NCBI GenBank assembly: GCA_043817815.1
Contig: JBDRGM010000017.1
Span: forward strand, 1-41,513
Length of the DNA stretch: 41,513 nt
Direction: 5' to 3'
From: an archaeon
GTDB lineage: Archaea > Nanobdellota > Nanobdellia > Pacearchaeales > GW2011-AR1
The stretch's first letter is position 1, and each line of letters starts with the position of its first letter. This document shows positions 220-35,776 of the stretch, in pieces. Below the pieces are notes generated by a model. It worked only from the letters and a program-made list of their open reading frames with translations. It searched no databases and was not told the DNA's origin. The translations under genes and the position numbers were made by a program.

Positions 220-387
220 ATGAAAAAGCAGGTAGATTATGCGGTTCTTGATCAGTTGTTGAAATCGCTTGAAGAAGCAGTGGCTGAACTTGAGAGTTCT
301 TATAAAAACAAGAATTATGAAAATTTTAACAAATCTAAGAAATTGTTATTAAATGTGCAGGTGAAGATTTCTGAGGTGATAGAATGA
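220..387 (+). CDS. small conserved helical protein (55 aa) coupled to tadC
   Basis: Hand translation MKKQVDYAVLDQLLKSLEEAVAELESSYKNKNYENFNKSKKLLLNVQVKISEVIE. Homologous to 30013..30198, with the same ATGA overlap onto the next gene. Below the ORF-track cutoff. Confidence 0.85.
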   Translation: MKKQVDYAVLDQLLKSLEEAVAELESSYKNKNYENFNKSKKLLLNVQVKISEVIE

Positions 388-1667: not shown

Positions 1668-1668
1668 A

Positions 1669-2499: not shown

Positions 2500-2544
2500 A
2501 AAACCTAATTTTTTGGCTTCTTTTTTTCCAAAAAAATGGTTTTT
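2500..2544. terminator. AT-rich hairpin between convergent genes (terminator or REP-like element)
   Basis: aaaacc-taa-ttttttgg ... ccaaaaaa-at-ggtttt inverted repeat directly after the stop codon. Confidence 0.45.
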
Positions 2545-2571
2545 TAAATTGAAAAATAAACTGTAAAAAAT

Positions 2572-3132: not shown

Positions 3133-3188
3133 AACATAACGAGCAAAATAAACTATATAAGCGTTACCATTAAGTAGTGATACACCCT

Positions 3189-4190: not shown

Positions 4191-4297
4191 AATAAAAACT
4201 AGATGTTGGCTTTTATAAGTTTAATCTCTAAGCAGTTTATTCTTTAATACGACATAGAACCTGATAAATATAAAAAGTGTTTTTGATTTCTTAAGGT

Positions 4298-4981: not shown

Positions 4982-4982
4982 A

Positions 4983-6242
4983 ATGAGGGGTAAAAAGGGT
5001 TGGCTGAAAATTGCAGAGGCGTTTATTTCAGTGATGTTGATAGCAACGGTAGTTGTAATTTTTATAGATAGTCAGGGAATAGATAAGGAAGAGATTTCTC
5101 CGAAAGTTTACAAGGAAGAGGCTTCTCTTTTGAGGAATATTCAGTTAAATGAAAGTTTGAGAGAGAGTATTCTTAACACAGTTAACTTGCCTGTTAAATG
5201 GAGTGATGTGGATTTTCCAGGAGGAGTGAAGAATAAGATAACTTCAGATAAACCAGATTATTTGGATTGCGAGGCGACGATATGTGGCGCGAATATTAGT
5301 GAATGTTCTATGGAAAGTTCTGTGACAAAAGATGTTTATGCTCAGAGCATTGGGGTTTTTTCAAGCAAGACGCAATATAACCCTCGGCAGTTGAAATTGT
5401 TTTGTTGGGATACATATGAGTTTGTTGGGGGAGATCTTTCAGGTTCTTCGGGCTCTTCAGGAGGAGGATGTACTCCAGATTGTTCTGGAAGAGTGTGTGG
5501 CCTTGACCTGGTTTGTGGTGAAAGCTGTGGGAGCTGTGGTAGAGGATATATCTGTGAAGACGGAGCTTGTAATTATTATGTGCCATATGGGGCTATTATG
5601 GAATTGCATCTTGATGATGGTGAAGGTGCCTCTTCATTTGTTGATTCTTCAGGTAATGGGAATGGTGGAACTTGTTCTTATTGTCCTGACTGGGATTCTT
5701 CTGGAATTGTTAATGGATCTTATCATCTTGATGGGACCACTTATATCACTGTGCCTGTTAGTTCAAATTGGGAATTTAACCAAGAGCTTACAGTCTCAGC
5801 ATGGTTTAAAAAAGATATAGCTGATGATGGGTTCTGGATTGTTGACAGGTGGATGAATTCTAAAGATTCTTTTCATTTGGATGTGGGAAGTTCTTCAAGT
5901 AATTATGCTGGGGGATTCACAACCTCGCTTACAGGAAAAGGCGGGAGCCCTCAAGAAAGAGCAGTAGGAGACACCCCGATTAATGACCTTGAATGGCATC
6001 ACTTAGTGGGGGTTTTTGATGGTCCTAGTGATAAGATATATATCTATTTAGATGGAGAGAAAGATGGAGAAGAAGATACTTCTTACGATACATTCTATTC
6101 AATTAGAGCGAATATTGAAATTGGCAGGTTAGCAGGATATCCTACCGCCAATGTTGTAGGAAATTTAGACGAAATAATACTTTGGGATAGAGCATTGAAT
6201 GCCTCAGAGATACAAGGTTATTATAACGCCACTCGTCCATAA
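4983..6242 (+). CDS. pilin-like protein fused to a Cys-rich linker and a LamG/concanavalin A-like domain
   Basis: KKG|WLKIAEAF. First ~142 aa match 26642..27130 up to NPRQLKLFCW, then a G/S linker, CTPDCSGRVCG and LamG motifs (LTVSAWFK, WHHLVGVFDG, IYLDG, GNLDEIILWDRAL). Confidence 0.8.
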   Translation: MRGKKGWLKIAEAFISVMLIATVVVIFIDSQGIDKEEISPKVYKEEASLLRNIQLNESLRESILNTVNLPVKWSDVDFPGGVKNKITSDKPDYLDCEATICGANISECSMESSVTKDVYAQSIGVFSSKTQYNPRQLKLFCWDTYEFVGGDLSGSSGSSGGGCTPDCSGRVCGLDLVCGESCGSCGRGYICEDGACNYYVPYGAIMELHLDDGEGASSFVDSSGNGNGGTCSYCPDWDSSGIVNGSYHLDGTTYITVPVSSNWEFNQELTVSAWFKKDIADDGFWIVDRWMNSKDSFHLDVGSSSSNYAGGFTTSLTGKGGSPQERAVGDTPINDLEWHHLVGVFDGPSDKIYIYLDGEKDGEEDTSYDTFYSIRANIEIGRLAGYPTANVVGNLDEIILWDRALNASEIQGYYNATRP

Positions 6243-6273
6243 ACATTAAAACTTCATTTTTATTATATCATTT

Positions 6274-6681
6274 ATGAAATTCAAATTTTTAGAGCATACA
6301 GCAGATATAAAGTTTCAAGCTTTTGGTAATTCATTAGAAGAGGTTTTTGAAAATTCTGCTTTGGCGATGTTTAATGCAATGCACGACGGAAAAGTTGAAA
6401 AAGAAACAAGCAAAAAGATTCAAGTAAAAGGAAAAGATAATGAAAGTTTGATGTATAATTTTTTGGAAGAACTTTTGTTTTTGTTTGACAGCGAGGGTTT
6501 TTTCCTTTCAGAAGTTAAAAGTTTGAAAATTGAAAAGGAAAAATTAGTTGCAGAAGTTGTCGGCGACAAAGCAGAAAATTATGAAATTCATATTGATGTT
6601 AAGGCAGTGACTTACAATGAAATGTTTGTTCGCGAGGAGAAAAAAGGAAAGTGGGTTGGACAGGTTGTTTTGGATGTTTAA
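6274..6681 (+). CDS. archease (RtcB cofactor)
   Basis: FLEHTADI, VKAVTYNEM, VVLDV C-terminus. Confidence 0.95.
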   Translation: MKFKFLEHTADIKFQAFGNSLEEVFENSALAMFNAMHDGKVEKETSKKIQVKGKDNESLMYNFLEELLFLFDSEGFFLSEVKSLKIEKEKLVAEVVGDKAENYEIHIDVKAVTYNEMFVREEKKGKWVGQVVLDV

Positions 6682-7175
6682 TCGCTGTTAAAGTAATAAT
6701 CTAAAACTCCTAATTGTAATGTAAATATCTTTTCTGGTGTTTCTTCAAATATCTGTTTCAATTTAGACTTTTTAATCCAGTAGATGTTTTTTGTTCCATC
6801 TCCTTGTTTAAGGGGTTCTTTATCTTTAACTTGACATATGAAAACAAAACCTATCCACGGTCTGCCGCCTTTAATTTGTTGGTGGCAGCAAAATGGTTTA
6901 AATGCAAAAGACCCATCATTATTGGGCGAGAGTATTTTTGTTTTTGAGTCTGGAGAGATTTTTAATGCTTTTAATCCGGTTTCTTCAAAAACTTCTCTAT
7001 TAAGAGCATCATAAATATTTTCAAACTCTCTTATTTTTCCTCCTGGCATTTCAAAACATCCGGAATATTTGGGATCTTCTTCAGGTTTCCACCTAGTTTG
7101 AATTAAAACTTCTGTTTCTCCATCTTTTAACCGTTCAATGATCGCTGTAACAACAGGGATGCTAAATCTTTCCAT
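6678..7175 (-). CDS. NUDIX hydrolase
   Basis: Nudix box GGKIREFENIYDALNREVFEETGL. Confidence 0.9.
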   Translation of the reverse strand: MERFSIPVVTAIIERLKDGETEVLIQTRWKPEEDPKYSGCFEMPGGKIREFENIYDALNREVFEETGLKALKISPDSKTKILSPNNDGSFAFKPFCCHQQIKGGRPWIGFVFICQVKDKEPLKQGDGTKNIYWIKKSKLKQIFEETPEKIFTLQLGVLDYYFNSD

Positions 7176-7263
7176 ATTTTAATCAATTGGGGGGTCTATA
7201 TAAAGATTATTCTTTAATTTTGTTTAACATCAGATTTATATATTTGTGTTGATGATCTAATAT

Positions 7264-8679
7264 ATGAAACTGAAAAAAATCTCTGCAAATATTTATGAAA
7301 TTCCTCGTGAAGGGAAAATGAATGTTCCTGGAATGGTTTTTGCAAGTGAGAAACTTTTGGAAAAAATCAAAGAAGACAAAACATTAGAGCAAGTTAAAAA
7401 TGTTGCACAACTCCCTGGAATTTTAAAAAAGTCAATAGCTCTTCCAGATGCACACCAAGGTTATGGTTTCCCAATTGGAGGCGTTGCTGCGTTTGACATG
7501 GACAAAGGAATAATTTCTCCAGGGGGAGTTGGTTATGATATTAATTGTTCTGTAAGATTATTAAAAACAAATCTCAAGAAAAAAGATATCTTAGATAAAC
7601 AAAAAAAAATTATTGAAGCTTTGTTTAGAAAAATTCCTTCTGGAGTTGGTCGCGGAAGTAAGTTTCAGATTACGCGAAAAGAATTGAATAAACTTTTAGA
7701 GAAAGGTGCGAAATATATTGTTGACAAAGGTTATGGGGTTAAAGAAGATTATTTGCACATGGAAGAAGAAGGATTCATCAAGAGAGCTGACTCTTCAAAA
7801 GTTTCAGAGAGAGCAATTAAAAGAGGAATTGGACAGCTTGGAACACTTGGGGCTGGAAATCATTTTTTAGAAGTTCAATTTGTCGACGAGATTTATGATG
7901 AAAAAATTGCAAAAGTTTTTGGTTTGGAGAAAGGGCAAGTTACAATCATGGTTCATTGTGGTTCAAGAGGATTAGGTCACCAGGTTGCGTCTGATTATAT
8001 TAAAGCTATGGAAGAAGAATATGGTTTTAAGAATTTGCCAGACAGGGAATTAATTAATGCTCCGATTAACAGCAAGTTGGGAAAAGATTATTTTGCTGCA
8101 ATGGCGTGTGCTGCGAATTTTGCGTTTGCAAATAAACAACTAATTACTCACTGGATTCGTGAAGAAATGAAATCTCTTTTTCCTAAGTTCAAGGCAGAAG
8201 TGGTTTATGATATTTGTCACAACATTGCAAAATTTGAAGAGTTTAAAGTTAACGGAAAAAAGCAAACTTTGTGTGTTCATAGAAAAGGTGCGACTAGATC
8301 GTTTGGCCCTGGAAGAAAAGAAGTTCCAGAAAAATATAGGAATGTTGGACAGCCAGTTATTATTCCTGGTTCAATGGGAACAGCATCGTATTTGCTTGTT
8401 GGAACAAAAAAGGCCGAGGAATTGACTTGGGGTTCAACAGCACATGGGGCTGGAAGAGTCTCAAGCAGAAGTGCAGCATTAAGAAATATTAATGGAGAAG
8501 AAGTCAAAAAAAGGTTAAGTGATAAAGGAATTGAAGTAAAGTCTGGAAGTTGGAAATCGCTTGCTTCAGAAGCACCTGAAGTTTACAAAGATATTGATGA
8601 GGTAATAAAGGTTGTTGACGAAATTGGTATAAGTAAAAAAGTTGTGAAATTAAAACCCTTGACAGTTATTAAGGGATAA
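7264..8679 (+). CDS. rtcB: RNA-splicing/repair ligase RtcB (copy 1)
   Basis: LPDAHQGYGFPIGG, GYDINC, GAGNHFLE, HCGSRG, CHN, HRKGAT, PGSMG, HGAGR, EAPEVYK all intact; no intein. Confidence 0.97.
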   Translation: MKLKKISANIYEIPREGKMNVPGMVFASEKLLEKIKEDKTLEQVKNVAQLPGILKKSIALPDAHQGYGFPIGGVAAFDMDKGIISPGGVGYDINCSVRLLKTNLKKKDILDKQKKIIEALFRKIPSGVGRGSKFQITRKELNKLLEKGAKYIVDKGYGVKEDYLHMEEEGFIKRADSSKVSERAIKRGIGQLGTLGAGNHFLEVQFVDEIYDEKIAKVFGLEKGQVTIMVHCGSRGLGHQVASDYIKAMEEEYGFKNLPDRELINAPINSKLGKDYFAAMACAANFAFANKQLITHWIREEMKSLFPKFKAEVVYDICHNIAKFEEFKVNGKKQTLCVHRKGATRSFGPGRKEVPEKYRNVGQPVIIPGSMGTASYLLVGTKKAEELTWGSTAHGAGRVSSRSAALRNINGEEVKKRLSDKGIEVKSGSWKSLASEAPEVYKDIDEVIKVVDEIGISKKVVKLKPLTVIKG

Positions 8680-8713
8680 TAAAACTTATAAAGAGGATTT
8701 TACTAATAAGAAA

Positions 8714-10153
8714 ATGAAAGGAGAGAGAGGTGTTATTTTTGTATTTTTATTTGTGATGTTATTGGCAAATGTTTCTGCTCAAAGTTGCGACGTGGTTTTA
8801 GAGGGTTCATGTTCGGACAATATTGTTATGTGGTTGTCTGATGAAACAAATGCACATGGAAGTCTTACAGATATGCCAAATTATGATTATGTTTTGTGTT
8901 GCGATTTTGGAACTGGAATTACTACTTGTGCAGATGAGAATGATATTATCAGGTTGGAAGAAGTAACAAACTCTCATGCTCAGATTCCAAGTTTAAGTGA
9001 TTATTTGGAGCCTGTTTGTTATGAAGAATTAAATTGCACAAGCAAGGTCGGGGATTGCACAGCGTCGGAGATGCCTACTCTTGCTTTATCTACAGACACA
9101 GATGCGCATATCTCTAAATATGATGATGTAGATGCTACTGTAAAAATATGTTGTGAAGGGGTTTGCCTAGGTGAACAAGAGTATTATGATGGAGATTGTG
9201 TTGCTGATGAACTCTTGTATTGGGAAGAGAGTGGAGGGATTGGAATACCTGACGGAGGAGTTGTAGAAGTTGTTGTTGGACAAACACAATTAGTTTTGGT
9301 CTTGAAAAATTCAAAAGAATTAGATGGCACAGGAGTTAGTTTTACAATTTATGAGGCAGACCTTGGACCAGATGATGAGATTAAAACCATAAACTCAGTG
9401 GTTAATTCTGGTGAAGCAAGTGCATTGTGGAAAATTCTCGAGGAGGATTTGCAAAAGACACTTGGGGATTATAAAGAGTTTTATTTTAAAGTGGCAGGAG
9501 TAGGAGGCTCAAGCCAGATTGTTGAACTTGATGTGGTTGATTCTGAAACTTTTTGTAGTATTCGGGAATATTGCAGGGACTATAAAGCGCAAGAAGATTG
9601 TGAAAGCGACTTATGCTCTGTTGCAGGGGCGAGTGTAGAGATAAATGATCCTTCCATAACTTGTGGGCAGGTTATTGTAGAGAATGGATGTACTGCCTGG
9701 CATAATTGTTCATGTGAGTGGAGAGGAGGAGTATGTGGTCCATCTAGGCTAGATAACTTAAATTGTACAGATGGTAATCCGGTAGTGATTGGGGCGTGTT
9801 TTTTCAATGAATCTTCAGCAGATGATTGTGAAGACGGATTGTTAGAGTACTCTTGGAAAGGAATTTATACATGGGATTTAGGAAACTGGAATACAACTCA
9901 AAAAGGTGGAGTATCAGGATGGTTAGAAGATCCATCAGCTTCAAATTATTGGCATTATGACCCAGGGGAAAAAGCAATGGGGTGTAGAACAGAGAATAGT
10001 AACGTGATCCAATGTCCAATAGAAGCTTTGCTTCCTTTTTTTACATGGATGAATATAATAGTTATTGCGATAATCATCGCTGTATTATATGTAATCATCG
10101 AGAGGAACAAGAAGAAACCAAAAAGAAAGGGTTCTAAAAAAAGAAAAAAATAA
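8714..10153 (+). CDS. Cys-rich secreted/membrane-anchored surface protein with three N-A-H-type repeats
   Basis: Signal peptide VSA|, TNAHG/TNSHA/TDAHI repeats, C-terminal LPFF-TM-polybasic tail; homolog of 21276..23144. Confidence 0.75.
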   Translation: MKGERGVIFVFLFVMLLANVSAQSCDVVLEGSCSDNIVMWLSDETNAHGSLTDMPNYDYVLCCDFGTGITTCADENDIIRLEEVTNSHAQIPSLSDYLEPVCYEELNCTSKVGDCTASEMPTLALSTDTDAHISKYDDVDATVKICCEGVCLGEQEYYDGDCVADELLYWEESGGIGIPDGGVVEVVVGQTQLVLVLKNSKELDGTGVSFTIYEADLGPDDEIKTINSVVNSGEASALWKILEEDLQKTLGDYKEFYFKVAGVGGSSQIVELDVVDSETFCSIREYCRDYKAQEDCESDLCSVAGASVEINDPSITCGQVIVENGCTAWHNCSCEWRGGVCGPSRLDNLNCTDGNPVVIGACFFNESSADDCEDGLLEYSWKGIYTWDLGNWNTTQKGGVSGWLEDPSASNYWHYDPGEKAMGCRTENSNVIQCPIEALLPFFTWMNIIVIAIIIAVLYVIIERNKKKPKRKGSKKRKK

Positions 10154-10188
10154 GATAATTTTATAAAACAGAAACACTATTTCTTGTC

Positions 10189-12831
10189 ATGAAAAAAGAG
10201 TGTGTAAAATTTTTGATAGTTGTTCTTTTAATCGGAAGTGTTTATGCTGGTTTTGAATTAGGGGCACCATCACATTCTGTTGATGAATATTATGGACCAG
10301 GGAATGATATCAAGGGGTGGGTGAACATGAGTTTTAATCAAGAATTGGCTAATTCATTATTTGAAGATTCGTTTGAAAATCAAATAACCTTGGTTGAGCT
10401 CTTGGAAAGTAATGATAATCTGCAGTATTCTTGTGTGCCTGTTGATTGTGGGACAGAATATGCCACAACTAATAATGGAGCAACTGAAAAAACATTTAGC
10501 CTGGACATTAGTGGTTCTAAATTAATTGGTTTAAAAGTCCAGGGAAATGTTGAATCAATAACCTCTGTTGATTTTGTGGTAGAAAGTGATGCAGGAAAAT
10601 CATGTTATAATCAATTGAAGATAGATGTTGGGGCAGACGGAGTTATTGAAACAGGCAATGCAAAATCCTCAACAGAAACTTGTGATTTTTTGAGGGACTA
10701 TGGATGTTTTGATGAAGAGGAAACTCCAAGAGATTATATAATTGGGGATTCTCCAAATAAAAAATATTGCCAGAAAATAAACTTGTCTGAATCTGCCGGG
10801 TTTAATATTGGGGCGGAGATTGCTCGTAATGGGGACTCGCGAATAGTGAAGATGGCTCTCTATGATCTCGACGGTGAGCCAATAGAAACAGGGGGTTGCG
10901 ACTTGCCAGGAGGAGAAGGAGAAGTTTATTGTAGTGTGGATTATCTTGTTACAGAAATTTCGCCTTATTATGTTTGTGTTTATTCGGATGAAGCAGGAGT
11001 GTCGAGGATAAAAGGATATGAAGAAGTGGGTGGTTGTGGATTTTATGGGGCAGGGATCCAAGCAGGAAATGCGGCGTATAAAATTTTTTCAGAAGGGAGA
11101 AAGTTCAACGATGTCGGAGTGTTGAACATTTCTAATTCAATTGCGCACGGAAACACATTGGCAGGAGAGATAAATGATTATTTAATGGAAAAGTATGGGG
11201 GCATGGCTTGTTCAGAAGGTTGTGTGATTCCTATAAATATTTTGTCTAAGAGTGACCAAAGTGTGACACTGAACAACTTAGAGATGAAATATAAAACTGC
11301 GAGCGGGGAGATTAGTGAGAATAAATTTTACGAGATAAATGAAACTTATGCCAAGGTTAATTCAACTCATCAAAAAATCTCTTTGAACAATGCAGGATTT
11401 GCAACTCCTTTAGAATATGGCAATTACACTTTTAGTTTGGATTTCAATGGAGAAGAATTATTCAGTAAAAATGTTCATGTTGAAAATGTGCCCCAGATAA
11501 AATATCTGTTTCCGACAAAAACGTCTTCTGCTTTTCCAACTTTGTTCAGGGTGACAACTGATTCTCAGGTAAGTGTGAAGGAGTATAAATGGGAATTTGG
11601 AGACAATAGTAGTGAGAAGACTTCTAAAAACGCGGTTACGCATGTTTATGCCTCAACAGGTGCTTATACATTGAAGCTTACACTTAAGGATAATTCAGAG
11701 CGGGTCTCTTCAAAAGAATTTATTATCATTGTTGTGTCTCCTAAGGAATTGTTAGCAGAAAAGCTCGAGATTATGCAAGCAGATATTGGAAACGTGACTG
11801 CGCAGATTAATTCTATGCCTGTGTTTTACAAGCAAGCTTTAAAATCAGTTTTAGATATGGATGATATCAGTGAGAAATTTAAACAGATTCAGAGGGACTA
11901 TAATGCTGCGACAACCGAGGAGGATTATAATGCAATTGTGGGAAGGTTCCTTGAATTAGAGGTTCCTAAAAAGTTGCTTACAAACGAGAAAGCTACTTCT
12001 TTGTTGTTTTATCCGAAGAGAGAGAACATAAATCTTGATGTCTTGAAGACTGTTGGAGGGGGGGACTATGAACTGGATAAAGAGAGCGAGTACAAGGAGG
12101 CGATTTTACTGTGGCAACAAAAGAATATTGATTTGAAGATTTCATTGGTTGAAATTTCTGCGGTGTATGAAACCTCTAGTGGAGTTCTTACGAGGATTTA
12201 TCAAATTGACTTGAAGGAGAAAGAAGAACTTGGGAAAGATCCTTATGTAATTATCAAAAAAAGTGAAGGGCTTGCTTTTAAAGAAAATTATCTTGAGCAA
12301 GAAGAAGGGGATTATTTTATTATTGAACTTTCTCAACCTGAACAGGTCATTGAATTTTCAACTGTTGAAGATTTTGAGTTTTTTGAATTGCCATTGTTTG
12401 TGTCCACAAGTTTGGCTAGGATAAAATTGCAAGAGCCAATAAAAGAGGCATTAATGAAGATGAATTGGAAGGCAGTGATAATTGTGATAATTGTAATATT
12501 CATTTTAGGGTTTGTGGTTTACGTTGTTTTGCAAGAATGGTATAAGAGGAAATATGAAAATTGGTTGTTTAAAGAGAGAAATGATTTGTATAATTTGATC
12601 TTTTACACGAAAAATTCAAAGGACCAGGGATTAGACAATAAACAGATTTTGCAAAAGTTGAAGAAGATGTCGTGGTCTTCTGAACAGATTAAATACATTA
12701 TTCGGAAATATTTGGGGAAAAGGACAGGGATGATTGAGATACCGATTATGAAATTGGTGGATAAGATAAGAGGATTGATACCGAAGAAGAAGGTTGTGGA
12801 GGAAAGTATCATTCCAACACGAAAAATTTAA
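10189..12831 (+). CDS. large PKD-domain membrane-anchored surface protein
   Basis: Signal peptide, PKD motif YKWEFGD...VTHVY...GAYTLKL, coiled coil, TM, cytoplasmic tail; homolog of 18578..21241. Confidence 0.8.
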   Translation: MKKECVKFLIVVLLIGSVYAGFELGAPSHSVDEYYGPGNDIKGWVNMSFNQELANSLFEDSFENQITLVELLESNDNLQYSCVPVDCGTEYATTNNGATEKTFSLDISGSKLIGLKVQGNVESITSVDFVVESDAGKSCYNQLKIDVGADGVIETGNAKSSTETCDFLRDYGCFDEEETPRDYIIGDSPNKKYCQKINLSESAGFNIGAEIARNGDSRIVKMALYDLDGEPIETGGCDLPGGEGEVYCSVDYLVTEISPYYVCVYSDEAGVSRIKGYEEVGGCGFYGAGIQAGNAAYKIFSEGRKFNDVGVLNISNSIAHGNTLAGEINDYLMEKYGGMACSEGCVIPINILSKSDQSVTLNNLEMKYKTASGEISENKFYEINETYAKVNSTHQKISLNNAGFATPLEYGNYTFSLDFNGEELFSKNVHVENVPQIKYLFPTKTSSAFPTLFRVTTDSQVSVKEYKWEFGDNSSEKTSKNAVTHVYASTGAYTLKLTLKDNSERVSSKEFIIIVVSPKELLAEKLEIMQADIGNVTAQINSMPVFYKQALKSVLDMDDISEKFKQIQRDYNAATTEEDYNAIVGRFLELEVPKKLLTNEKATSLLFYPKRENINLDVLKTVGGGDYELDKESEYKEAILLWQQKNIDLKISLVEISAVYETSSGVLTRIYQIDLKEKEELGKDPYVIIKKSEGLAFKENYLEQEEGDYFIIELSQPEQVIEFSTVEDFEFFELPLFVSTSLARIKLQEPIKEALMKMNWKAVIIVIIVIFILGFVVYVVLQEWYKRKYENWLFKERNDLYNLIFYTKNSKDQGLDNKQILQKLKKMSWSSEQIKYIIRKYLGKRTGMIEIPIMKLVDKIRGLIPKKKVVEESIIPTRKI

Positions 12832-21275: not shown

Positions 21276-23144
21276 TTAATGTTTTTCTCTTTGAATTAAA
21301 ACAACATAGATTAAAGTGATTAATATAAATGCTATAATTAAATTATAAAATCCAAAAAATGCAAGTTGAATTTGTGTTGGGCATTCTAGTGTGTCGCTTT
21401 TGCTATAACATTGAGTAAGCAACTGATTTTCACTATTATAAAGAGGATCATAATGCCATCTATCATCAAATTTTGACTCTATAGTGCTACTAAAAAGCAC
21501 ACATGTATTACTATTTCCTCCAGTTCCTGAGATACATTCTAATTGAGTAAACCATCCACTATTATCTGCTGGCCAATCAATATAACTTATAGCAGAATAA
21601 CTTATATATCCATCTGTACAATCATAATCAGTATTTGTATAATCCCATTTACATGTTCCTAGTTCAGAAGTGTCAGAAGAGCCTGCACTTTCTTCACATA
21701 AAGAAGTATCAAACCTGCATTCTCTTGAAGTTCCAGGAGCATAACAAGATAAAGTTCCACCTGGAAAATCATCAATATTTCCACAACCTGTAATTTGGCC
21801 CCAATTAGATCCATCACATGTTTCAGATAAACCATCATTATTAGGTATTTGCACAATTTCATCCCCACAAATTCCTCCAGTAGTACAACCTGTGCATTGA
21901 CTTGAATCAATCAAACATGTAACAGGATTGCAACTTAGACTTCCTCCAGTGCAATCATTAATGTCTGTACATGTCAAATCTCCAAACTCTGTTCCATCAC
22001 ATGTTTCACCTGGGTTGATAACTCCATTCCCACAAGAAGGTCCTGGTATACCTGTGAATTTAGGACTACATATGCCTTCAGAGATATTCCACCAGCACTC
22101 GCAAATATATCCATCTCCACAAGTTATGTCAGGATTGTTTATGTTAACACTATCATCAGCAACCACACAAATATCTTGTTCACATGTTTCTTGTTCAGTA
22201 TAGTCTAAACAAGAATTTATATTTACACAACTTCCTCCACTAAGAATCATGGCTAAATCTCCACTTACCTGTCCATTAACTATAAAATAAAATTCTTCTA
22301 AATCAAATGTTTTATCTAAATCCTCTTGAGTTATTGTCCACTTTTCTATTGCATCTCCTTGGCTATTTACAACACCTGTTATTGCATCACTTCCGACTCT
22401 TATATCATCATCAATGAAAAAATCATTTTCATAAATTTCAAAACTCACTGGTGTATTTTCAGGCAGTCCAACATCTCTTAAAATAAGAGATACTTGTGTG
22501 CTTTCTGGAATTACTTCAATTTCAGCTATTGCAATAATAGGATTATTTGCACTTGCCCAGTAAGCATTTACCTGTTGTGAAATGCATATGCCATTTATAT
22601 CACAGGTTTCTGGTGGTACACAACCAGGAGGACAAGTTCCTGCACAACCATCACTCCCACATTCTTTACCTGTACAATCTGGAACACACACACTACCACA
22701 ACAAATTTTTACAGGATAATCACCAAACTCTCCAATATGAGCATTAGTATCGTCAGACAAAGAAAGCATTTGTATATCATAACCTGGTAGACAACTTCCA
22801 GAATTGCTTGCACATGCTAAATTGCTATAACAAACATCACTATCATAATTATTAAGGGAAGGGATTTCTGCATGAGCATTTGTTACATCTGATAATCCTA
22901 TAATTTTGTTTGCTCCATCACAATTTGTTACCCCGTTGCCAAAATCACAGCACAAAACATAATTATAATTACTCTGGCTTGACAATTCTCCGTGTGCATT
23001 TGTTAGAGCAGACAAACCCATAATAGTATAATCACTGCAAGAAGCTCTTGTTGTAATACTGCAATTATCAGCAGAAACAAATCCTATTAATAGGATTATT
23101 AAGAATAAAAAACTCAAAAACATGCCCCTTTTTTTTTGTTTCAT
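21276..23144 (-). CDS. Cys-rich surface protein with three TNAH repeats and additional Cys modules (copy 2)
   Basis: TNAHG/TNAHA/TNAHI, DCTGKECGSDGC module, CGNGVINPGETCDG repeats, WHYDP, C-terminal TM. Confidence 0.75.
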   Translation of the reverse strand: MKQKKRGMFLSFLFLIILLIGFVSADNCSITTRASCSDYTIMGLSALTNAHGELSSQSNYNYVLCCDFGNGVTNCDGANKIIGLSDVTNAHAEIPSLNNYDSDVCYSNLACASNSGSCLPGYDIQMLSLSDDTNAHIGEFGDYPVKICCGSVCVPDCTGKECGSDGCAGTCPPGCVPPETCDINGICISQQVNAYWASANNPIIAIAEIEVIPESTQVSLILRDVGLPENTPVSFEIYENDFFIDDDIRVGSDAITGVVNSQGDAIEKWTITQEDLDKTFDLEEFYFIVNGQVSGDLAMILSGGSCVNINSCLDYTEQETCEQDICVVADDSVNINNPDITCGDGYICECWWNISEGICSPKFTGIPGPSCGNGVINPGETCDGTEFGDLTCTDINDCTGGSLSCNPVTCLIDSSQCTGCTTGGICGDEIVQIPNNDGLSETCDGSNWGQITGCGNIDDFPGGTLSCYAPGTSRECRFDTSLCEESAGSSDTSELGTCKWDYTNTDYDCTDGYISYSAISYIDWPADNSGWFTQLECISGTGGNSNTCVLFSSTIESKFDDRWHYDPLYNSENQLLTQCYSKSDTLECPTQIQLAFFGFYNLIIAFILITLIYVVLIQREKH

Positions 23145-23180: not shown

Positions 23181-23420
23181 TTAACTCATTATAACTGCCA
23201 AAGGTTTAAGTCTAATTACTTTTTTGTTTATTCCAAGACCCTCAACAGATTTTATAACTTCATCTATGTCTTTGTAAACTTCAGGAGCTTCTTCTGCTAG
23301 AAATTTTATATTTTCTGATTTAATCTCAATCCCTTTTTTATTAAGTTCTTTTTTTACTTCTTCTCCTTTTATTTCTTTTGATGCAGCACTTCTACTTTTC
23401 ACTCTTCCAGCACCATGCAC
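23181..23420 (-). pseudogene. rtcB: relic 3' fragment of an rtcB gene (last ~79 aa)
   Basis: HGAGRVKSRS...EEAPEVYKDIDEV...LKPLAVIMS; homology stops abruptly upstream of V-HGAG. Confidence 0.88.
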
Positions 23421-23513
23421 ATTAATTGGACGCTGTCGCCTTTAGGGAATCAGAGGATGTCACATAGAGATATTTAATTAAAGAATACTTTAAAGCAATG
23501 GTTAGCTAAGCTC

Positions 23514-23539
23514 CTTTATTTTTTGCAATAAAAATAAAG
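23514..23539. terminator. 10-bp AT-rich stem-loop downstream of rtcB copy 2
   Basis: ctttattttt-tgcaat-aaaaataaag. Confidence 0.4.
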
Positions 23540-23578
23540 TATCAATGAACGAACAAGCAGTTCCTGATAAGTAATAGG

Positions 23579-24982
23579 TTACCCTTTAATTACAATCAAG
23601 GGCTTTAATCTAGCGATTTTTTTGCTTATTCCGATTTCATCAACAACTCTGACAACCTCATCAATATCTTTGTAAATTTCTGGTGCCTCTTGCGCAAGCG
23701 CTTTCCAGCTTCCCGATTTAACTTCAATACCTTTTTCTGCAAGCGCGCTTTTTACTTCTTCACCTCTTAAATCTTTCATGGCTTTGCTTCTTGATGATAT
23801 ACGCCCTGCACCATGAACAGTTGAACCCCAAGTAAGCTCTTCTGCTTTTTTTGTTCCAACCATTAAATACGATGCAGTCCCCATTGAACCAGGAATAATT
23901 ACTGGTTGCCCTATCTCTCTATAATTCTCAGGAATTTCTTTTCTTCCAGGTCCAAAACTTCTAGTTGCACCTTTTCTGTGAACGCAAACTTTTTTCCCGT
24001 CAAACTCCTCGAATTTTGCAATATTATGGCAGATATCATAAACAACATCTATATTGATTTTTGGAAAAATGTACGTCATTTCTTCACGAACCCAGTGCGT
24101 AATTAACTGTTTGTTGGCAAATGCAAAATTAGCAGCGCACGCCATTGCAGCAAAGTAATCTTTTCCCAATTGGCTTTTTATTGGAGCATTAATTAACTCT
24201 CTGTCTGGCAGTCCCTTAAATCCGTATTTATCTTCCATTTTCTTTATATAATCTGAAGCAACCTGGTGACCCAATCCTCGGGAACCGCAATGAATCATTA
24301 TTGTTACTTGTTCTTTCTCAATCCCAAAAATTTTCGTAATTTTATCATCATAAATTTCATCAACAAACTGAACTTCTAGGAAATGATTTCCAGCACCAAG
24401 TGTTCCAAGTTGCCCAATTCCTCTTTTAATCGCACGCTCTGAAACCTTTGAAGCATCTGCGCCTTTAATGCAGCCTTCTTCTTCTGTATTGACATAATCT
24501 TCTTTTAATCCATAACCCTTGTCTACAATATATTTCGCACCTTGCTCCAAAACTTTATTCAATTCTTTGCGCGTAATCTGAAACTTACTTCCGCGTCCTA
24601 CACCTGAAGGAATTTTTCTAAACAATGCTTCAACAACTTGCTTTTGTTTTTTTAGTACATCTTCTTTTTTCAAATTTGTTCTTAACAATCTAACTGAACA
24701 ATTGATATCATATCCAACTCCGCCAGGAGAGATTATTCCTTTATCCATATCAAATGCAGCAACACCTCCGATTGGAAAACCATAACCGACGTGCATATCT
24801 GGCAAACCAATAGAATATTTAAGAATTCCTGGCAAATGAGCAACATTTGCAACTTGTTTTAGTGCATCCTCTTCAATTATCATCTTATCGGAGATAATAA
24901 TCTTTCCTGGAACACGCATATCATTTTCTTTCAAAAGAGTATATTCATATTTTCCTATCTTTTTCAAATTTTCCTTATACAT
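23579..24982 (-). CDS. rtcB: RtcB ligase (copy 2) with divergent N-terminus
   Basis: All RtcB catalytic motifs present (LPDMH, DINC, GNH, HCGSR, CHN, HGAG); no intein. Confidence 0.97.
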   Translation of the reverse strand: MYKENLKKIGKYEYTLLKENDMRVPGKIIISDKMIIEEDALKQVANVAHLPGILKYSIGLPDMHVGYGFPIGGVAAFDMDKGIISPGGVGYDINCSVRLLRTNLKKEDVLKKQKQVVEALFRKIPSGVGRGSKFQITRKELNKVLEQGAKYIVDKGYGLKEDYVNTEEEGCIKGADASKVSERAIKRGIGQLGTLGAGNHFLEVQFVDEIYDDKITKIFGIEKEQVTIMIHCGSRGLGHQVASDYIKKMEDKYGFKGLPDRELINAPIKSQLGKDYFAAMACAANFAFANKQLITHWVREEMTYIFPKINIDVVYDICHNIAKFEEFDGKKVCVHRKGATRSFGPGRKEIPENYREIGQPVIIPGSMGTASYLMVGTKKAEELTWGSTVHGAGRISSRSKAMKDLRGEEVKSALAEKGIEVKSGSWKALAQEAPEIYKDIDEVVRVVDEIGISKKIARLKPLIVIKG

Positions 24983-24983
24983 T

Positions 24984-25865
24984 TTAATTTTCCTTTAATA
25001 TATTTTTGATTAATTTTTTATTGATTAATTTTTGTATATCTTCTCTTCTATTTATATTTAACTCATAATAAATAGTTCCAATGCCATTAATTCTTTTGTT
25101 AACTTTTCCATTAATTTTATAGAATTTATATAATAATTGATTTAGTTTGTTAAGATTAACTTCTTCTTTAGATACAATTCTAATATAATAGGGTTTTTTA
25201 ATCCTAACCTTTTTATTTAATAAATCTTTTACAAATAATTCACATTCTTTTTCTTTTGATGGAAAAGACCATTTATATTCAACAAAATCTTTAATTAGAA
25301 CGTCTAATTTCTCTTTTTTATCAGGATGTAAAAAACCTATTTCTTTAGAAAATTTTATCAAATTCCCTTTTCCATAAATAAAAATTCTAAATATACCTCT
25401 TTTTTTATTTACTTTTTTAATTGTTTTTATGCCAAGTTTGTTGAGAGATTTAATAATTTGATTAAGACCTTTTTCATTAACACTATCTAATCCAATATGT
25501 CTATTTTGATGTGTTTTACAAAATACCCATCCCTCACAATCGAAAAATGTTCTTAACCATTTTTTAGATAATCTATCATTAAGCAAAGGCATGACCCACT
25601 CTTTAGAATAAAATGAACCAAACTTTGAAGTAAGTTTTTCATAGAGTTCTTTTTTTTGAACAATACACCTTTCACCAATATTTAATCTTGGTTTAATCTT
25701 AAAATAATTAAAGAATTTCTTTTGAAAATCTTTTAACAGGACTAAATTAGTATTTCTAAACCCAATGTAATAATACTTTTGTTTTTGTGTTTTAGGATTT
25801 TTTATAACATAACCATCAGCACAAAGATAAGAATGTATTGATGTAAGATTTTCATTAAATTTCAT
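24984..25865 (-). CDS. free-standing two-motif LAGLIDADG (DOD-type) homing endonuclease-like protein
   Basis: Motif 1 IHSYLCADG, motif 2 WLRTFFDCEG, LNKLGIKT and FSKEIGFLHPDKKEKL as in intein endonucleases. No Hint/splicing motifs. Own TATA at ~25887-25894; 1 nt from the rtcB start. Confidence 0.85.
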   Translation of the reverse strand: MKFNENLTSIHSYLCADGYVIKNPKTQKQKYYYIGFRNTNLVLLKDFQKKFFNYFKIKPRLNIGERCIVQKKELYEKLTSKFGSFYSKEWVMPLLNDRLSKKWLRTFFDCEGWVFCKTHQNRHIGLDSVNEKGLNQIIKSLNKLGIKTIKKVNKKRGIFRIFIYGKGNLIKFSKEIGFLHPDKKEKLDVLIKDFVEYKWSFPSKEKECELFVKDLLNKKVRIKKPYYIRIVSKEEVNLNKLNQLLYKFYKINGKVNKRINGIGTIYYELNINRREDIQKLINKKLIKNILKEN

Positions 25866-25880
25866 AAGATAAGAAAGAAC

Positions 25881-25973
25881 TTATGGTTTAAATACCTTAT
25901 GTTTATCAGGAACTAACATTTTTCCTTCTTTCAGTATCTCATAAATATTTTGGGAAATCTTTTTGAGTTTCAT
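25881..25973 (-). pseudogene. rtcB: stranded 5' fragment of rtcB (first 22 codons, then 8 unrelated codons)
   Basis: Hand translation MKLKKISQNIYEILKEGKMLVP-DKHKVFKP*; 18/22 identical to the RtcB copy 1 N-terminus; upstream TATA-like tract at ~25995-26003. Confidence 0.9.
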
Positions 25974-26187: not shown

Positions 26188-26589
26188 TCAAACATCAACT
26201 ACAACCTGTGCAATCCATTTATTTTTTTCCTTGCGAATAAACATCTCATTGTAAGTTATGGCTTTGACATCAAGATGAATCTTATAATTTTCTGCTTTGT
26301 CTCCTAAGATCTCTGCTTCAAGCTCTTTTTCTTTAATCTTAACTTTAACTCTTGAAACAAAAAATCCCTCGCTGTCAAACAAAAATAACAACTCTTCTAA
26401 AAAATTATACAACAGACTTTCATTATCATTACCTTGAACACTTACATTCTTCTTAATTTTCTCTTTCACTTTTCCATTAAACATAGCATTAAACATTGCA
26501 AGTGCAGAATTTTCAAAACTCTCTTCTAGAGTTTTCCCAAATGCCTGAAATTTTATATCTGCTGTGTGCTCAAGGAATTTGTATTTCAT
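26188..26589 (-). CDS. archease (copy 2)
   Basis: FLEHTADIKF, VKAITYNEM, VVVDV. Confidence 0.95.
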   Translation of the reverse strand: MKYKFLEHTADIKFQAFGKTLEESFENSALAMFNAMFNGKVKEKIKKNVSVQGNDNESLLYNFLEELLFLFDSEGFFVSRVKVKIKEKELEAEILGDKAENYKIHLDVKAITYNEMFIRKEKNKWIAQVVVDV

Positions 26590-30265: not shown

Positions 30266-31858
30266 TTATACTACAGTAACAGTTGTCTGGCCTTTTGTGG
30301 TTGTATCAACAGTTTCTCCTTCAAACATGTAAATACCATCAAAAACATAATTACCTGTTGTTGCAGGTGCTTGTACTGTGTATGTGAAAGGATCTTGTCT
30401 AGGACCAGTTACACCTTCAATCCATACCCATCTATATGTATTTGACGCATCTGGGAGTCCTGTACTTCCACTTGTGACAACCCACCCACTTGGTATATAT
30501 TCTTCAATTGCATAAAATGTTTCTCCACTTATAATAGTAACATCAATCATAACATCTATTTGAGCACCAGTAGAAACTGTTGTTGATGAAAAGCTTCTAG
30601 TAACTTGCGATTCAGTTTGAGTCAAACACTGGCTTCCTGACCATGAACAGCTTCCTAAATTACAAGGGTCATCAATACATGTTGTCTGGTCATTGTCATA
30701 AGACTCACAAGTTGCACCACCACATGAATTACATTCATCAACTAATATTCTGTCTATGAAATAACAACTATCACCAGTGCAAGAATAACATTCTGGCCTG
30801 TCACATATGTTAAATAATCCATCACCACAAGTATCACATGTCGTGCATGTTGGGTTTTCACAGGTTGCATCACAACACCTTGTTGTATCTGAGGCAGGTA
30901 TTGTGTTTCCTGAACAATACTGCTCTCCTGTACATGTAGTTCCTCCTATTTGTGCACATGTTCCAAGAGGTTGTGTTACAGTTAATTGGTTGCTGCTTGT
31001 TATGGTCTCACTCTCGCCAACAACTGTCGCAATAAAATAATATTCTGGGTCACTGCTTACATCATCTTGCCATTCTGCTGTCCATATACCTGTAGCACTA
31101 TTTCCAGTAAATATAACATTAACAGGATTAATTGATACAGGGTCGTCACCAACTAAATCATCTTCCCAAACTTCAAATGAAATAGTTTGTCCATCACAAT
31201 CTGTTCCAATAATATTTAAATTTACTGCAGTACCTTCAACAACAGATGTTTGACTCCAAGTAGCTGAAGTTAAATCACAAGGATTAGTTCCAATTATACA
31301 GGTTCCAGATGAGCAATATTCACCACTTCCACAACCAGGAGGACAAGTTCCTGCACAACCATCACTTCCACATTCTTTACCTGTACAATCTGCTGTGCAA
31401 CTTTGACTACTAATTCCTTTAAGTCTGTAAGTACTTATAATACGTCCAATAATTATTTTTCCAGATTTAGTTTTATACATTGGTGCAACTGAAATTGTTT
31501 CAACATTAGAAAGATTTAATTGATTTAAAACAAAACTAAAACCTCTTTGTCCTAATTCTTCCAAATTTATATTTGTTTCCTCAAGAATCTCAGAATTAAA
31601 CCCGTCATTAAATATAAATTTTATTCCTGTTAATTCTCCTTTTCCTGCATTTCTTTTTATATTCATTGAAATATTTTCTGTTCCAACACTAACATCTTTA
31701 ATATCTAAATCAAGTGTAAATTGTCCTAATTCTATTTCTTCACTTCCAGTTTCAATAACATTTCTTATAACAATCCAGACAATTCCTACTGCAACCAAGA
31801 CTAACAAGATTATAATTAAACTAGTAATGACTGTTGATAACCCTCTTTTATTTTTCAT
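30266..31858 (-). CDS. pilin-anchored multi-domain Cys-rich adhesin-like protein
   Basis: KRG|LSTVITSLIII class III signal, pilin domain, Cys modules, C-terminal Ig-like region. Confidence 0.75.
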   Translation of the reverse strand: MKNKRGLSTVITSLIIILLVLVAVGIVWIVIRNVIETGSEEIELGQFTLDLDIKDVSVGTENISMNIKRNAGKGELTGIKFIFNDGFNSEILEETNINLEELGQRGFSFVLNQLNLSNVETISVAPMYKTKSGKIIIGRIISTYRLKGISSQSCTADCTGKECGSDGCAGTCPPGCGSGEYCSSGTCIIGTNPCDLTSATWSQTSVVEGTAVNLNIIGTDCDGQTISFEVWEDDLVGDDPVSINPVNVIFTGNSATGIWTAEWQDDVSSDPEYYFIATVVGESETITSSNQLTVTQPLGTCAQIGGTTCTGEQYCSGNTIPASDTTRCCDATCENPTCTTCDTCGDGLFNICDRPECYSCTGDSCYFIDRILVDECNSCGGATCESYDNDQTTCIDDPCNLGSCSWSGSQCLTQTESQVTRSFSSTTVSTGAQIDVMIDVTIISGETFYAIEEYIPSGWVVTSGSTGLPDASNTYRWVWIEGVTGPRQDPFTYTVQAPATTGNYVFDGIYMFEGETVDTTTKGQTTVTVV

Positions 31859-34711: not shown

Positions 34712-35776
34712 TTAACTCAAATCTAAATTATATAATGCTTTAACTTGTTCTTCTGACAATGCTCTGTTGAATATCATTGGTTCGTCTATTGTACCATCGA
34801 ACTTTTGATTAGAATTGCCTCCTATCATGAGATTCGTAGTTGCTTGTACCGGAGGAGTTATAGAACCTCCTCCATCAGGATTACCGTCTAAATAAAAAGT
34901 TACTTGTCCAGAAGAGACTACTACAGTAACATGATAGAAAACATTATTAGATAGCGCGGTATTTGCAGTTCTGTATGTTGATGTTCCACTTTGGTCATTT
35001 CTAAAGATAGGTTTTTGATTATGTCCATCCACTCTCCATATAAACCCCGAAACTTGATATATTTCTGAGCCCATAATTTCCCAATTATCAGATACAGGAG
35101 GGAAAGGGTCTGCTGAAATTTTTATCCATGCTACTAAAGTTTTATCTCCAGTTAATTTTAAACTAGAATCACTTCCAGTATCTATATAATTACTGCTTCC
35201 ATCAAAATCACAAGCCTTTCCAAACTTCCCATCAACATTGCAGTTAGCTCCTATTATTGTTCCATCATTATTTCCTATTTCATCATTTGCATTTCCGTCT
35301 AATTTCCACCATGAAACAGCTCCCATGTTTTCAATGATTTCTTTATTTGAAAAAACTTTTTTATCAATCTCATTTCCAACAGAGTCTTTTCCAGAGCCTG
35401 ACTTTAAAATTGGAGCAATTGAAATCTCTTTGACTAAACCAGTATAATTTAATGTGAATGTTGTTTCTCCTAATTCTCCAATATTTGTAGGCTCTTCAAA
35501 TTCCTGCACATTAATTCCATCACCAATTAAAAATTTTATTCCTGTTAATTCTCCCTGCCCTGGATTTCTTTTAACTTTAACATCAATATCTCCAGGATTA
35601 ACACTAACATCTTTGATTTTCAAATCAATCATGAATTTTCCCAGAGAAACCTGTTCTGCACCTTCAGAGATAACATTTCTTATAACAACCCAGACAATTC
35701 CTACTGCAACCAAGACTAACAAGATTATAATTAAACTAGTAATGACTGTTGATAACCCTTTTTTATTAGGTGTCAT
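34712..35776 (-). CDS. type IV pilin fused to a LamG domain
   Basis: KKG|LSTVITSLIII; SWWKLDGNAND, TLVAWIK, YHVTVV, FYLDG, FDGTIDEPMIFNRALS. Confidence 0.85.
   Translation of the reverse strand: MTPNKKGLSTVITSLIIILLVLVAVGIVWVVIRNVISEGAEQVSLGKFMIDLKIKDVSVNPGDIDVKVKRNPGQGELTGIKFLIGDGINVQEFEEPTNIGELGETTFTLNYTGLVKEISIAPILKSGSGKDSVGNEIDKKVFSNKEIIENMGAVSWWKLDGNANDEIGNNDGTIIGANCNVDGKFGKACDFDGSSNYIDTGSDSSLKLTGDKTLVAWIKISADPFPPVSDNWEIMGSEIYQVSGFIWRVDGHNQKPIFRNDQSGTSTYRTANTALSNNVFYHVTVVVSSGQVTFYLDGNPDGGGSITPPVQATTNLMIGGNSNQKFDGTIDEPMIFNRALSEEQVKALYNLDLS

Follow-up and report, generated by a model that had tools for sequence, protein, structure and literature searches.

A free-standing LAGLIDADG endonuclease gene inside a broken rtcB gene of a Pacearchaeales archaeon: a candidate homing element linked to the rtcB 5' end

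The endonuclease and its locus

We analysed a stretch of 41,513 nucleotides (nt) from an archaeon of the order Pacearchaeales (GenBank assembly GCA_043817815.1, contig JBDRGM010000017.1), hereafter the window, in which a LAGLIDADG endonuclease gene and a complete copy of the RNA ligase gene rtcB lie between the two ends of another, broken rtcB. The host is a tiny groundwater archaeon with a genome of 725 kb in 45 contigs (86.75% complete, 6.88% contaminated), of which the window is contig 17, and its relatives have been labelled Pacearchaeota, Woesearchaeota or Nanoarchaeota by their depositors. The broken resident gene is called psi, and the two complete copies are called rtcB1 and rtcB2. The features of the locus, numbered by window position, are the following.

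26188-26589, minus strand: archease copy 2, the upstream neighbour of the cassette (Pfam Archease, E 2e-42)
25881-25973, minus strand: 5' stub of psi, with 22 rtcB codons (25973-25908) followed by 8 foreign codons (DKHKVFKP) and a stop at 25881
25887-25910, minus strand: left-end motif CCTGATAAACATAAGGTATTTAAA, 24 nt, TATA-bearing, unique in the window and matched by 0 of 100 shuffles
24984-25865, minus strand: LAGLIDADG endonuclease gene, 293 amino acids (aa), matching only LAGLIDADG_3 in Pfam (E 1e-15)
23579-24982, minus strand: complete rtcB2, 467 aa, RtcB family over 426 of 426 profile positions
24788-24982, minus strand: apparent replacement 5' segment of rtcB2, codons 1-65 ('type A' N-terminus), grouping at 100/98 with endonuclease-linked N-termini of other genera
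24773-24802, minus strand: rtcB2 codons 61-70 (PDMHVGYGFP), putative recoded, immune version of the endonuclease target
23579-24787, minus strand: rest of rtcB2, codons 66-467 and stop, either the resident gene's or imported with the cassette; RtcB family, full length
23421-23578, minus strand: spacer of 158 bp with a T-rich hairpin, from the rtcB2 stop to the 3' stub
23181-23423, minus strand: 3' stub of psi, 78 codons (23423-23190), starting at the V-H of HGAGR
7264-8679, plus strand: rtcB1, an ordinary ('type B') paralogue without endonuclease, RtcB family; codons 61-70 at 7444-7473 are the putative susceptible site

An earlier note on this DNA, made from the sequence alone, had described an rtcB start broken after codon 22, a TATA element, a LAGLIDADG gene with two motifs and no Hint domain, and a complete rtcB 1 nt downstream. 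All of these were confirmed at their places, with one base between the endonuclease stop and the rtcB2 ATG. The 5' stub, which keeps the native upstream region of psi, is identical to RtcB1 at 18 of 22 residues (aa 1-22; tblastn 81.8%, E 4e-5). That match had been read as a likeness to rtcB1 in particular; however, N-termini from three other genera match it just as well (18/22), and the stub is therefore a generic ordinary N-terminus. The contrast drawn between a divergent N-terminus and a body close even in DNA was reproduced: RtcB2 is 41% identical to RtcB1 over aa 1-22 and 54% over aa 1-62, whereas aa 63-391 are 86% identical in protein and 82% in nucleotides, including a 26-nt string shared exactly by both copies (7651-7676, plus strand; 24570-24595, minus strand). 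The proposed insertion also stands as far as the 5' stub and the cassette are concerned, but it was incomplete, as the 78-codon 3' stub 158 bp after rtcB2 had been overlooked. This stub matches RtcB1 aa 392-469 at 69% (tblastn, E 8e-26), RtcB2 at 63% and the Pfam RtcB family with E 7e-23, and its identity to any C-terminus compared is at most 74%. Given the 3' stub downstream, the endonuclease, the whole of rtcB2 and the spacer sit inside a broken third rtcB. Searching the spacer against all fetched loci with blastn returned only chance-level matches of 21-28 nt.

All four junctions (3' stub to spacer, spacer to rtcB2 end, rtcB2 to endonuclease, and endonuclease to 5' stub and archease) are spanned by mismatch-free contigs from three other studies (runs X3, X4 and X5), and the arrangement is therefore no assembly artefact. 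Parts of the stretch without cover in X3-X5, a joint 24787>25909 in X4 with sides of 20 nt, and the small-share runs X6-X9 were set aside as evidence.

The endonuclease gene is an open reading frame (ORF) with its own start and stop between archease and rtcB, and is thus free-standing. A Pfam search of its product found no Hint or intein family and no WhiA_N, HTH_WhiA or other helix-turn-helix (HTH) family. It is not an intein: it lacks a Hint domain, its ORF is separate from rtcB, and GYDINCSVRLL is unbroken in both complete rtcB copies of the window, confirming that the intein site GYDIN|C is empty here. Among 20 aligned intact copies, D17 (YLCADGY) is invariant and position 111 (FFDCEGW) is E, or D in two of them. 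We take these two to be the catalytic positions of the LAGLIDADG family; an acid precedes the glycine in each of two motifs, as in monomeric LAGLIDADG homing endonucleases. The AlphaFold (AF2) model (pLDDT 89.8) consists of three alpha-beta-beta-alpha-beta-beta-alpha units (residues 5-82, 97-175 and 205-282), the first two of which match I-DmoI (TM 0.68-0.70 on the target). The nearest folds overall are PI-PfuI (E 1.4e-9), the Tli VMA intein endonuclease and PI-PkoII, and I-DmoI is also among the best. Foldseek gives a probability of 1.00 for PI-PfuI, I-DmoI and I-Tsp061I, in keeping with a paired-core fold, and profile matches include the VMA intein (2e-6) and PI-PfuI (6e-5). A WhiA-like regulator or a LAGLIDADG maturase, raised earlier as an alternative, is a weak one, as the acids are kept in 20 of 20 copies, neither WhiA_N nor HTH_WhiA is found, no intron occurs in the order, and WhiA and the bI3 maturase rank only 39 and 42 by fold. 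The third unit (aa 205-282; window 24984-25376) carries no catalytic motif and, judging by the model, may be an added DNA-binding module. Pairwise ratios of nonsynonymous to synonymous divergence (dN/dS) are 0.10-0.18, with dS near saturation. Overall, the 293-aa protein is predicted to be a site-specific double-strand cutter with a long target.

In several relatives, GYDIN|C is occupied by inteins with a LAGLIDADG domain of their own (genomes G142, at locus L037 4169-5497; G291, at L002/L102; G388, G265 and G137), so that some rtcB genes hold two different homing elements. What looked like another rtcB copy in G142 (tblastn aa 18-471 after aa 1-95) proved to be an intein at GYDIN|C, without any duplication.

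Self-comparison of the window identified an old inverted duplication of about 12 kb (~300-12,800 on the plus strand versus ~30,100-18,650 on the minus strand), collinear and 68-77% identical in nucleotides where alignable. In this alignment the 5' stub corresponds to the rtcB1 start (7264-7329), and the 3' stub to the rtcB1 3' end and the downstream gene (8443-8979 versus 23417-22870, 67.9% nt). Because both stubs are collinear with the rtcB1 region, they represent the two termini of a third copy, psi, which by its position is the paralogue of rtcB1. Dating by synonymous divergence was attempted and rejected, since dS between the paralogous regions and between rtcB1 and rtcB2 (0.8-4.4) is saturated. 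The duplication includes pilin-like genes, archease, rtcB and large surface-protein genes, and probably accounts for part of the 6.9% 'contamination' of the genome bin. A Nudix-like gene (6678-7175, minus strand) lies on the opposite strand between archease1 and rtcB1, and the second copy of the region has no such gene. Two further repeats were observed: one of 63 nt with 98% identity, far above the level of the surrounding duplication, in two different large genes (22619-22681 and 31330-31392), and a direct repeat of ~310 nt with 76% identity over the ends of two neighbouring genes (31546-31852 and 35464-35767). A scan of the window against viral contigs found no relative. A scan for bacterial-type promoters and terminators found 13 against 14.5 expected, and its bacterial model is uninformative for an archaeon.

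Joint movement with the rtcB 5' segment

Full-length orthologues of the endonuclease, 53-68% identical, were found in 22 of 401 sampled genomes of the order (window included) and are scattered over many genera, with both presence and absence within genera g17, g48, g39, g11, g20, g3 and g7. RtcB itself is present in 368 of the 401 genomes, mostly as a single copy. In a phylum-level sample, the endonuclease was detected in 15 of 391 genomes. Three more genomes of the order (G132, G219 and G297) have only the last 46-70 endonuclease codons, directly before rtcB, and this remaining 3' part may hold the rtcB promoter. As to the neighbourhood, rtcB lies directly downstream in all 20 endonuclease loci with a downstream flank, and a same-strand archease lies upstream in 16 of 20 assessable ones. 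The ORF is intact in the window and in 20 of 21 related copies (19 full-length, one ended by its contig), an internal TGA occurring only in G142.

To compare the history of the two parts of rtcB, we used 77 RtcB genes (the 2 of the window, 20 linked to the endonuclease, 3 beside a remnant and 52 with neither), chosen as the best matches to rtcB1 plus congeners of endonuclease bearers and thus covering part of the genomes with RtcB. The N-terminal tree was inferred from columns 1-65 (63 rows) and the body tree from columns 70-471. N-termini were split with 100/98 support into 22 type A rows and 41 others, rtcB1 being on the ordinary side. The type A rows comprise 15 endonuclease- or remnant-linked genes and 7 without, and read MYKEKLKKIG...ISEKMIIEEDALKQVANVA...SIGLxDMHVGYGF; the other 41 read MKLKKISxNIYEIPKEGKMNVPG...SIALPDAHQGYGF. 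Among these 41, seven endonuclease-linked 'type C' genes form a 100/96 clade and mostly read ...GYGACIGG (G360 and G385 differ). Bodies, on the other hand, follow the genus, with type A genes placed beside ordinary ones: G389 with G212 (100), G281 with G133 (100), G021 with G111 (100), G142 with G225 (98), and the g17 genes together. A single type A clade is rejected on the body columns (log-likelihood difference 892; approximately unbiased test, p = 6e-5), where the label needs 17 changes on the 77 rows. The earlier note had suggested separate trees for aa 1-65 and aa 66 to the end, and had expected incongruence if promoter, endonuclease and ~65 foreign codons form a mobile unit; the trees are incongruent in just this way.

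In the endonuclease tree, one group corresponds to N-terminal type A (13 of 14 on one side, 91/98) and a second to type C (98/95), and only G074 and G385, near the root, depart from this pattern. The tree also conflicts with genus. For example, G301 and G328 (both g3) have sister bodies and yet differ in endonuclease group and N-terminal type, and G064 and G042 (both g148) have endonucleases of different groups. A recent case with a bounded tract is that of the congeners G281 and G133: upstream, as far as about -110, their sequences agree at 100%, identity then drops to 50-67% between -105 and +190, and it is back at 100% by +680. The conflict between N-terminal and body trees and the bounded tract are what co-conversion of the rtcB 5' end would leave. 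Comparison thus shows an endonuclease that, as far as sequences can tell, moves between lineages together with a promoter-bearing left end and the first ~65 codons of rtcB. With such joint movement, present and past carriers have a foreign type A N-terminus on a native body.

Traces of insertion and loss point the same way. A survey of upstream stubs, also proposed in the earlier note, found a 5' stub of the resident rtcB between archease and the left-end motif in 7 of 22 endonuclease loci, each ending at the motif and each of the ordinary N-terminal type. The stubs are 22 codons long in the window, G291, G195 and G200, 36 in G389, ~42 in G284, and 61 in G142, where the last ends ...ALP|D. By manual count, the G389 stub shares 28 of 32 residues with the native N-terminus of its congener G212. 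Where the endonuclease has been lost, G281 retains 5 stub codons fused to the last 9 endonuclease codons and G395 retains the last 11 endonuclease codons, while in G051 and G341 the archease stop overlaps the start of a type A rtcB. One gene family therefore presents a natural series of empty site, stub-bearing insertion, clean insertion, remnant and footprint.

The left end is marked by the motif. Of the assessable loci of the order that have the endonuclease, 17 of 21 carry its 21-nt core (at most 4 mismatches) at a distance of 42 nt from the ATG of that gene, and the core was found upstream of rtcB in 0 of 40 endonuclease-less loci. The centre of the TATA-like part, TATTTAAA, lies ~26 nt ahead of the same ATG, as would suit an archaeal TATA box of a leaderless message, and the motif is thus a putative promoter. 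The idea that the motif is a remnant of the rtcB target, based on a resemblance by eye of CCTGATAAACATAAGGT to CCTGATGCACATCAAGGT, was dropped after a local-alignment test.

A candidate target site and putative mini-introns in other DPANN lineages

Three kinds of change in endonuclease-linked genes concentrate on rtcB codons 62-70, where the replaced tract also ends. The DAHQG of ordinary genes is replaced by D[MIV]H[VTLI]G in 15 of 15 endonuclease-linked type A genes. Type C genes have GYGAC in place of GYGFP in 7 of 8 cases, the eighth (G360) reading GYAM. The third kind consists of short inserts, found in other lineages. We infer that the target is the DNA coding for PD-AHQ-GYGFP (codons 61-70) in endonuclease-less rtcB, and that the recoded, DMHV-type site would be immune to cutting. 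The corresponding site of rtcB1 (GAT GCA CAC CAA GGT TAT GGT TTC CCA) has only synonymous differences from the consensus.

A wider scan of the family, with one genome per species, yielded 79 loci labelled by depositors as Woese-, Pace-, Nano-, Micr- and Aenigmatarchaeota, and in a few cases as Methanosarcinales or Syntrophoarchaeum. Almost every member of the family with 41% identity or more adjoins the rtcB 5' end, some of them co-directionally. At about 14 loci, the endonuclease is divergently oriented between archease and rtcB (L131, L137, L141, L143, L145, L147-L149, L153, L155, L158, L174, L175 and L177), and frame-shifted or interrupted copies occur among the distant loci (L139, L173 and L177).

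In 27 of the 64 family-linked rtcB genes with an identifiable site, the stretch from the His codon of PDxH to (Y)GFPIGG is interrupted by an insert of 18-36 nt that brings stops or frame shifts and starts 0, +2, +7 or +9 nt after that codon. The insert-bearing loci are among L134-L178 and L185-L208 (e.g., L157:4016-4085 and L152:4030-4100). With a strict pattern that ignores the endonuclease, a phylum-wide sample of 401 genomes gave 24 with such an insert and 0 control matches. In the window's order, no insert was found in any of the 77 rtcB genes, and the pattern matched 0 of 29 genomes. An ORF-less intron at the putative target, as in collaborative homing, is thus absent from the window and its order, and candidates for one are present in other lineages, at the 27 of 64 genes above.

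Every insert has a hairpin. We searched, blind to reading frame, for bulge-helix-bulge structures with a 4-bp helix, two 3-nt bulges and a cut after the second bulge base, a cut position assumed to be as in tRNA introns. The predicted cuts restore D-x-H-x-G-Y-G-F in 25 of 45 distinct cases with the best solution and in 36 of 45 with any solution, compared with 0 and 4 of 900 for shuffles. In an alignment of ten putative introns, each stem pair has 1-4 double compensatory changes and the central helix a UA>CG change, and many inserts have extra unpaired bases opposite the second bulge, that is, a relaxed form. We therefore read the inserts as relaxed bulge-helix-bulge introns, which would be removed by splicing. 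The endonuclease stands beside rtcB in 9 of the 24 pattern-positive genomes. Conversely, 9 of the 12 endonuclease-bearing genomes outside the window's order (in the 391-genome sample) are among these 24, and one other is the unpublished G737; the samples behind the two counts differ slightly.

Interpretation, alternatives and comparison with known systems

The reading that we consider quite probable is that of a free-standing LAGLIDADG homing endonuclease upstream of rtcB that spreads together with its left end and a recoded rtcB 5' segment. Cleavage, target and splicing are predicted from sequence. In the proposed mechanism, the endonuclease would cut an endonuclease-less rtcB within codons 61-70, and the break would be repaired from an endonuclease-bearing donor. 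The copied segment would end at the conserved GYGFPIGG block and bring along the uncut, recoded site (DMHV). If the upstream join formed through short homology and not through archease, the resident 5' end would be stranded as a stub. In the window, the cassette would have landed in psi, in the second copy of the old duplicated archease-rtcB region, leaving 22 psi codons upstream and 78 downstream, and rtcB2 would be either wholly imported in one event or the body of psi with both ends replaced in two. In other DPANN archaea, the same endonuclease family would be paired with a short bulge-helix-bulge intron splitting the same site. The earlier interpretation is thus partly supported, being largely right but incomplete.

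Several observations weigh against this reading. On the same contig, 17 kb away, rtcB1 has an ordinary DAHQGYGFP site and is unconverted, which implies a silent or inactive enzyme here, or else a proposed target that is wrong in detail. As crossovers between diverged genes favour conserved blocks, the end of the tract at GYGFPIGG does not by itself place the cut. When the left-end motif is aligned to rtcB, only 6 of 54 genes have their best local match at codons 58-68, and shuffled motifs score as well. Five of the seven endonuclease-less type A genes (G128, G171, G246, G021 and G211) have no recognisable remnant. Counts of the association between endonuclease and intron are overstated, since related genomes are not independent. 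Furthermore, the mostly intact ORFs fit domestication as well as recurrent transfer.

For the history of psi and rtcB2 in the window, the leading possibility, on which our confidence is evenly divided, is a single event, in which promoter, endonuclease, a whole foreign rtcB and 158 bp of 3' flank replaced psi codons 23-391 through two short-homology joins. The two stubs align in order with the rtcB1 region and exactly bracket the insert, so that one event explains both. Genus g39 is also the nearest for the endonuclease (68%, G291), the N-terminus (82%, G291) and the C-terminus (85%, G112). However, g39 is the nearest genus to rtcB1 as well, and its affinity would be expected anyway. The bodies of rtcB1, rtcB2, G112 and G291 are 84-86% identical to each other (rtcB2 is 85% identical to rtcB1, G112 and G291 alike), and dS is saturated. 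Given these equidistant bodies and a 3' stub at most 74% identical to any C-terminus, the rtcB2 body may be either resident or imported. In addition, the otherwise 100%-identical congeners G281 and G133 break at the same HGAGR His codon, which favours a separate 3' hot spot over a chance join.

A somewhat less probable history has two events: the rtcB2 body (codons 66-391) would be that of psi, its 5' end having come with the cassette and its 3' end, from HGAGR, with a separate foreign insertion. This agrees with the earlier note, in which stub and body were once one gene. It is favoured by G281 and G133, where 5' and 3' tracts have been replaced independently on either side of a middle part of 100% identity and the 3' break coincides with the codon at which the window's 3' stub begins, and by C-terminal rtcB fragments behind inserted DNA in G369 (450 nt) and G389 (2.2 kb). 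On the other hand, a single gene would have to have undergone two irregular events, the flanks covered showed no agent for the one at the 3' end, and neither G133 nor G281 has an extra stub.

In the loci themselves, L073 (G281) and L058 (G133) are 100% identical over 500 nt of rtcB, diverge at the HGAGR His codon (nt ~1180) and are unrelated downstream. The C-terminal fragments (L083 of G369, 172-360; L034 of G389, 262-360) lie behind inserted unrelated genes that follow a complete rtcB, and that of G369 is close to the end of its own gene. These loci hint at a second hot spot at the rtcB 3' end. An integrative element using the rtcB 3' end was considered and rejected, as G133 and G281 have no second C-terminal fragment, and no integrase or nuclease was found in the flanks of G369, G389, G281 or G133.

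The remaining alternative, a domesticated LAGLIDADG protein that is an old, vertically inherited and often lost partner of rtcB (an archease-rtcB regulator or a mini-intron helper), with N-terminal types as old alleles shuffled by recombination, is improbable: its fixed position, in either orientation, next to the 5' end of rtcB in several DPANN phyla, the mostly intact ORFs with dN/dS of 0.10-0.18, a strongly conserved upstream motif that could be an operator, the co-residence with an unconverted rtcB1 and the intron linkage outside the order would all suit it, but both catalytic acids are kept in 20 of 20 copies, no WhiA or HTH family is present and WhiA is 39th by fold, the protein is confined to 22 of 401 genomes in the order and to 15 of 391 in the phylum-level sample, its tree conflicts with genus, stubs, remnants and footprints mark insertion and loss, and the window's order has the protein with the intron in 0 of 77 genes.

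Returning to the mobile endonuclease, we lean slightly towards a broader claim, namely a previously undescribed DPANN homing system in which a free-standing, three-unit endonuclease would act on the DAHQGYGFP site of rtcB, an essential ligase gene, and spread across phyla, with three protective devices at the same ~25 bp. These would be the carried, recoded 5' segment seen in the window, the FP-to-AC recoding, or the bulge-helix-bulge mini-intron. By analogy, the intron-paired form would be the archaeal counterpart of 'collaborative homing'. If true, the intron version would tie RtcB synthesis to the ligase activity of RtcB itself, a built-in feedback loop, and would be a natural intermediate from a free-standing endonuclease to a mobile archaeal intron. 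A free-standing endonuclease linked to ORF-less archaeal introns at its putative target bears on the origin of mobile introns, and on the question whether some archaea require RtcB in order to express rtcB. In addition, the protein is a candidate for a new nuclease with a long site and one further unit resembling a DNA-binding one.

To our knowledge, the archaeal homing endonucleases described so far are housed in rRNA introns or inteins. This is true of I-DmoI, I-Tsp061I, PI-PfuI and PI-PkoII, the nearest by fold and sequence, whereas the window enzyme is free-standing, with its own promoter-like motif, no Hint domain and a third LAGLIDADG-like unit. In fungal mitochondria, endonuclease ORFs carrying a piece of the target gene displace the end of the resident gene and supply a replacement, usually of the 3' end and fused in frame; in the window, it is the 5' end that is replaced, and the endonuclease is a separate ORF. 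It is in phages that free-standing endonucleases are known to carry a rebuilt part of their target gene with them. The earlier note, which had named phage and fungal mitochondrial analogues, knew of no description of the arrangement itself, which needs qualifying in view of the phage systems. A literature search, judged at the level of titles and abstracts, found no description of a free-standing endonuclease at rtcB or of an intron in rtcB.

In intronless homing, as outlined in PMC6083498, the neighbouring gene is broken and the gene of a free-standing endonuclease is then copied along with markers on its flanks. The Seg and Mob proteins of T4-like phages are alike in that the endonuclease gene lies between two conserved genes and is optional among relatives (PMC6083498). 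In the window, the neighbours are archease and rtcB, and the co-converted marker would be the rtcB 5' segment. Seg and Mob differ in being GIY-YIG or HNH enzymes of phages, whereas here a three-unit LAGLIDADG protein occurs in cellular DPANN genomes; moreover, the resident gene end is often left as a stub, so that the element in effect carries a replacement gene start.

A second parallel is F-CphI beside the intron-bearing psbA of cyanophage S-PM2, which targets the intron insertion site while the ORF-less intron protects the host copy (outlined in PMC6083498, citing Zeng et al. 2009). Similarly, outside the window's order, the family adjoins rtcB genes split by ORF-less mini-introns at the putative target. 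The psbA intron is a self-splicing group I intron, whereas the rtcB inserts, as bulge-helix-bulge structures of 18-36 nt, would need a splicing endonuclease and RtcB itself, and the window has no intron but only the recoded site. A short protein-coding bulge-helix-bulge intron removed by the tRNA-splicing machinery is reported for archaeal cbf5 (outlined in PMC2738675); it is crenarchaeal, in another gene and without a linked endonuclease.

MobA with the 50-nt bypass insert of T4 gene 60, and MobE inside nrdA of Aeh1, illustrate how element-borne coding pieces can rebuild a target; the short insert destroys the enzyme's own recognition site, and progressive loss of the endonuclease leaves the insert behind (outlined in bioRxiv 10.1101/2022.08.31.505936). 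MobA splits its gene into two proteins and ribosomes skip the insert, whereas rtcB stays whole and its old start is a dead stub. The rtcB inserts of relatives further differ from the MobA insert in having the geometry of an RNA-splicing substrate. What would be new is a cellular archaeal form of this phage-like strategy, in the genomes of ultra-small archaea and apparently aimed at the ligase of spliced RNA, with an unexpected link to archaeal mRNA introns.

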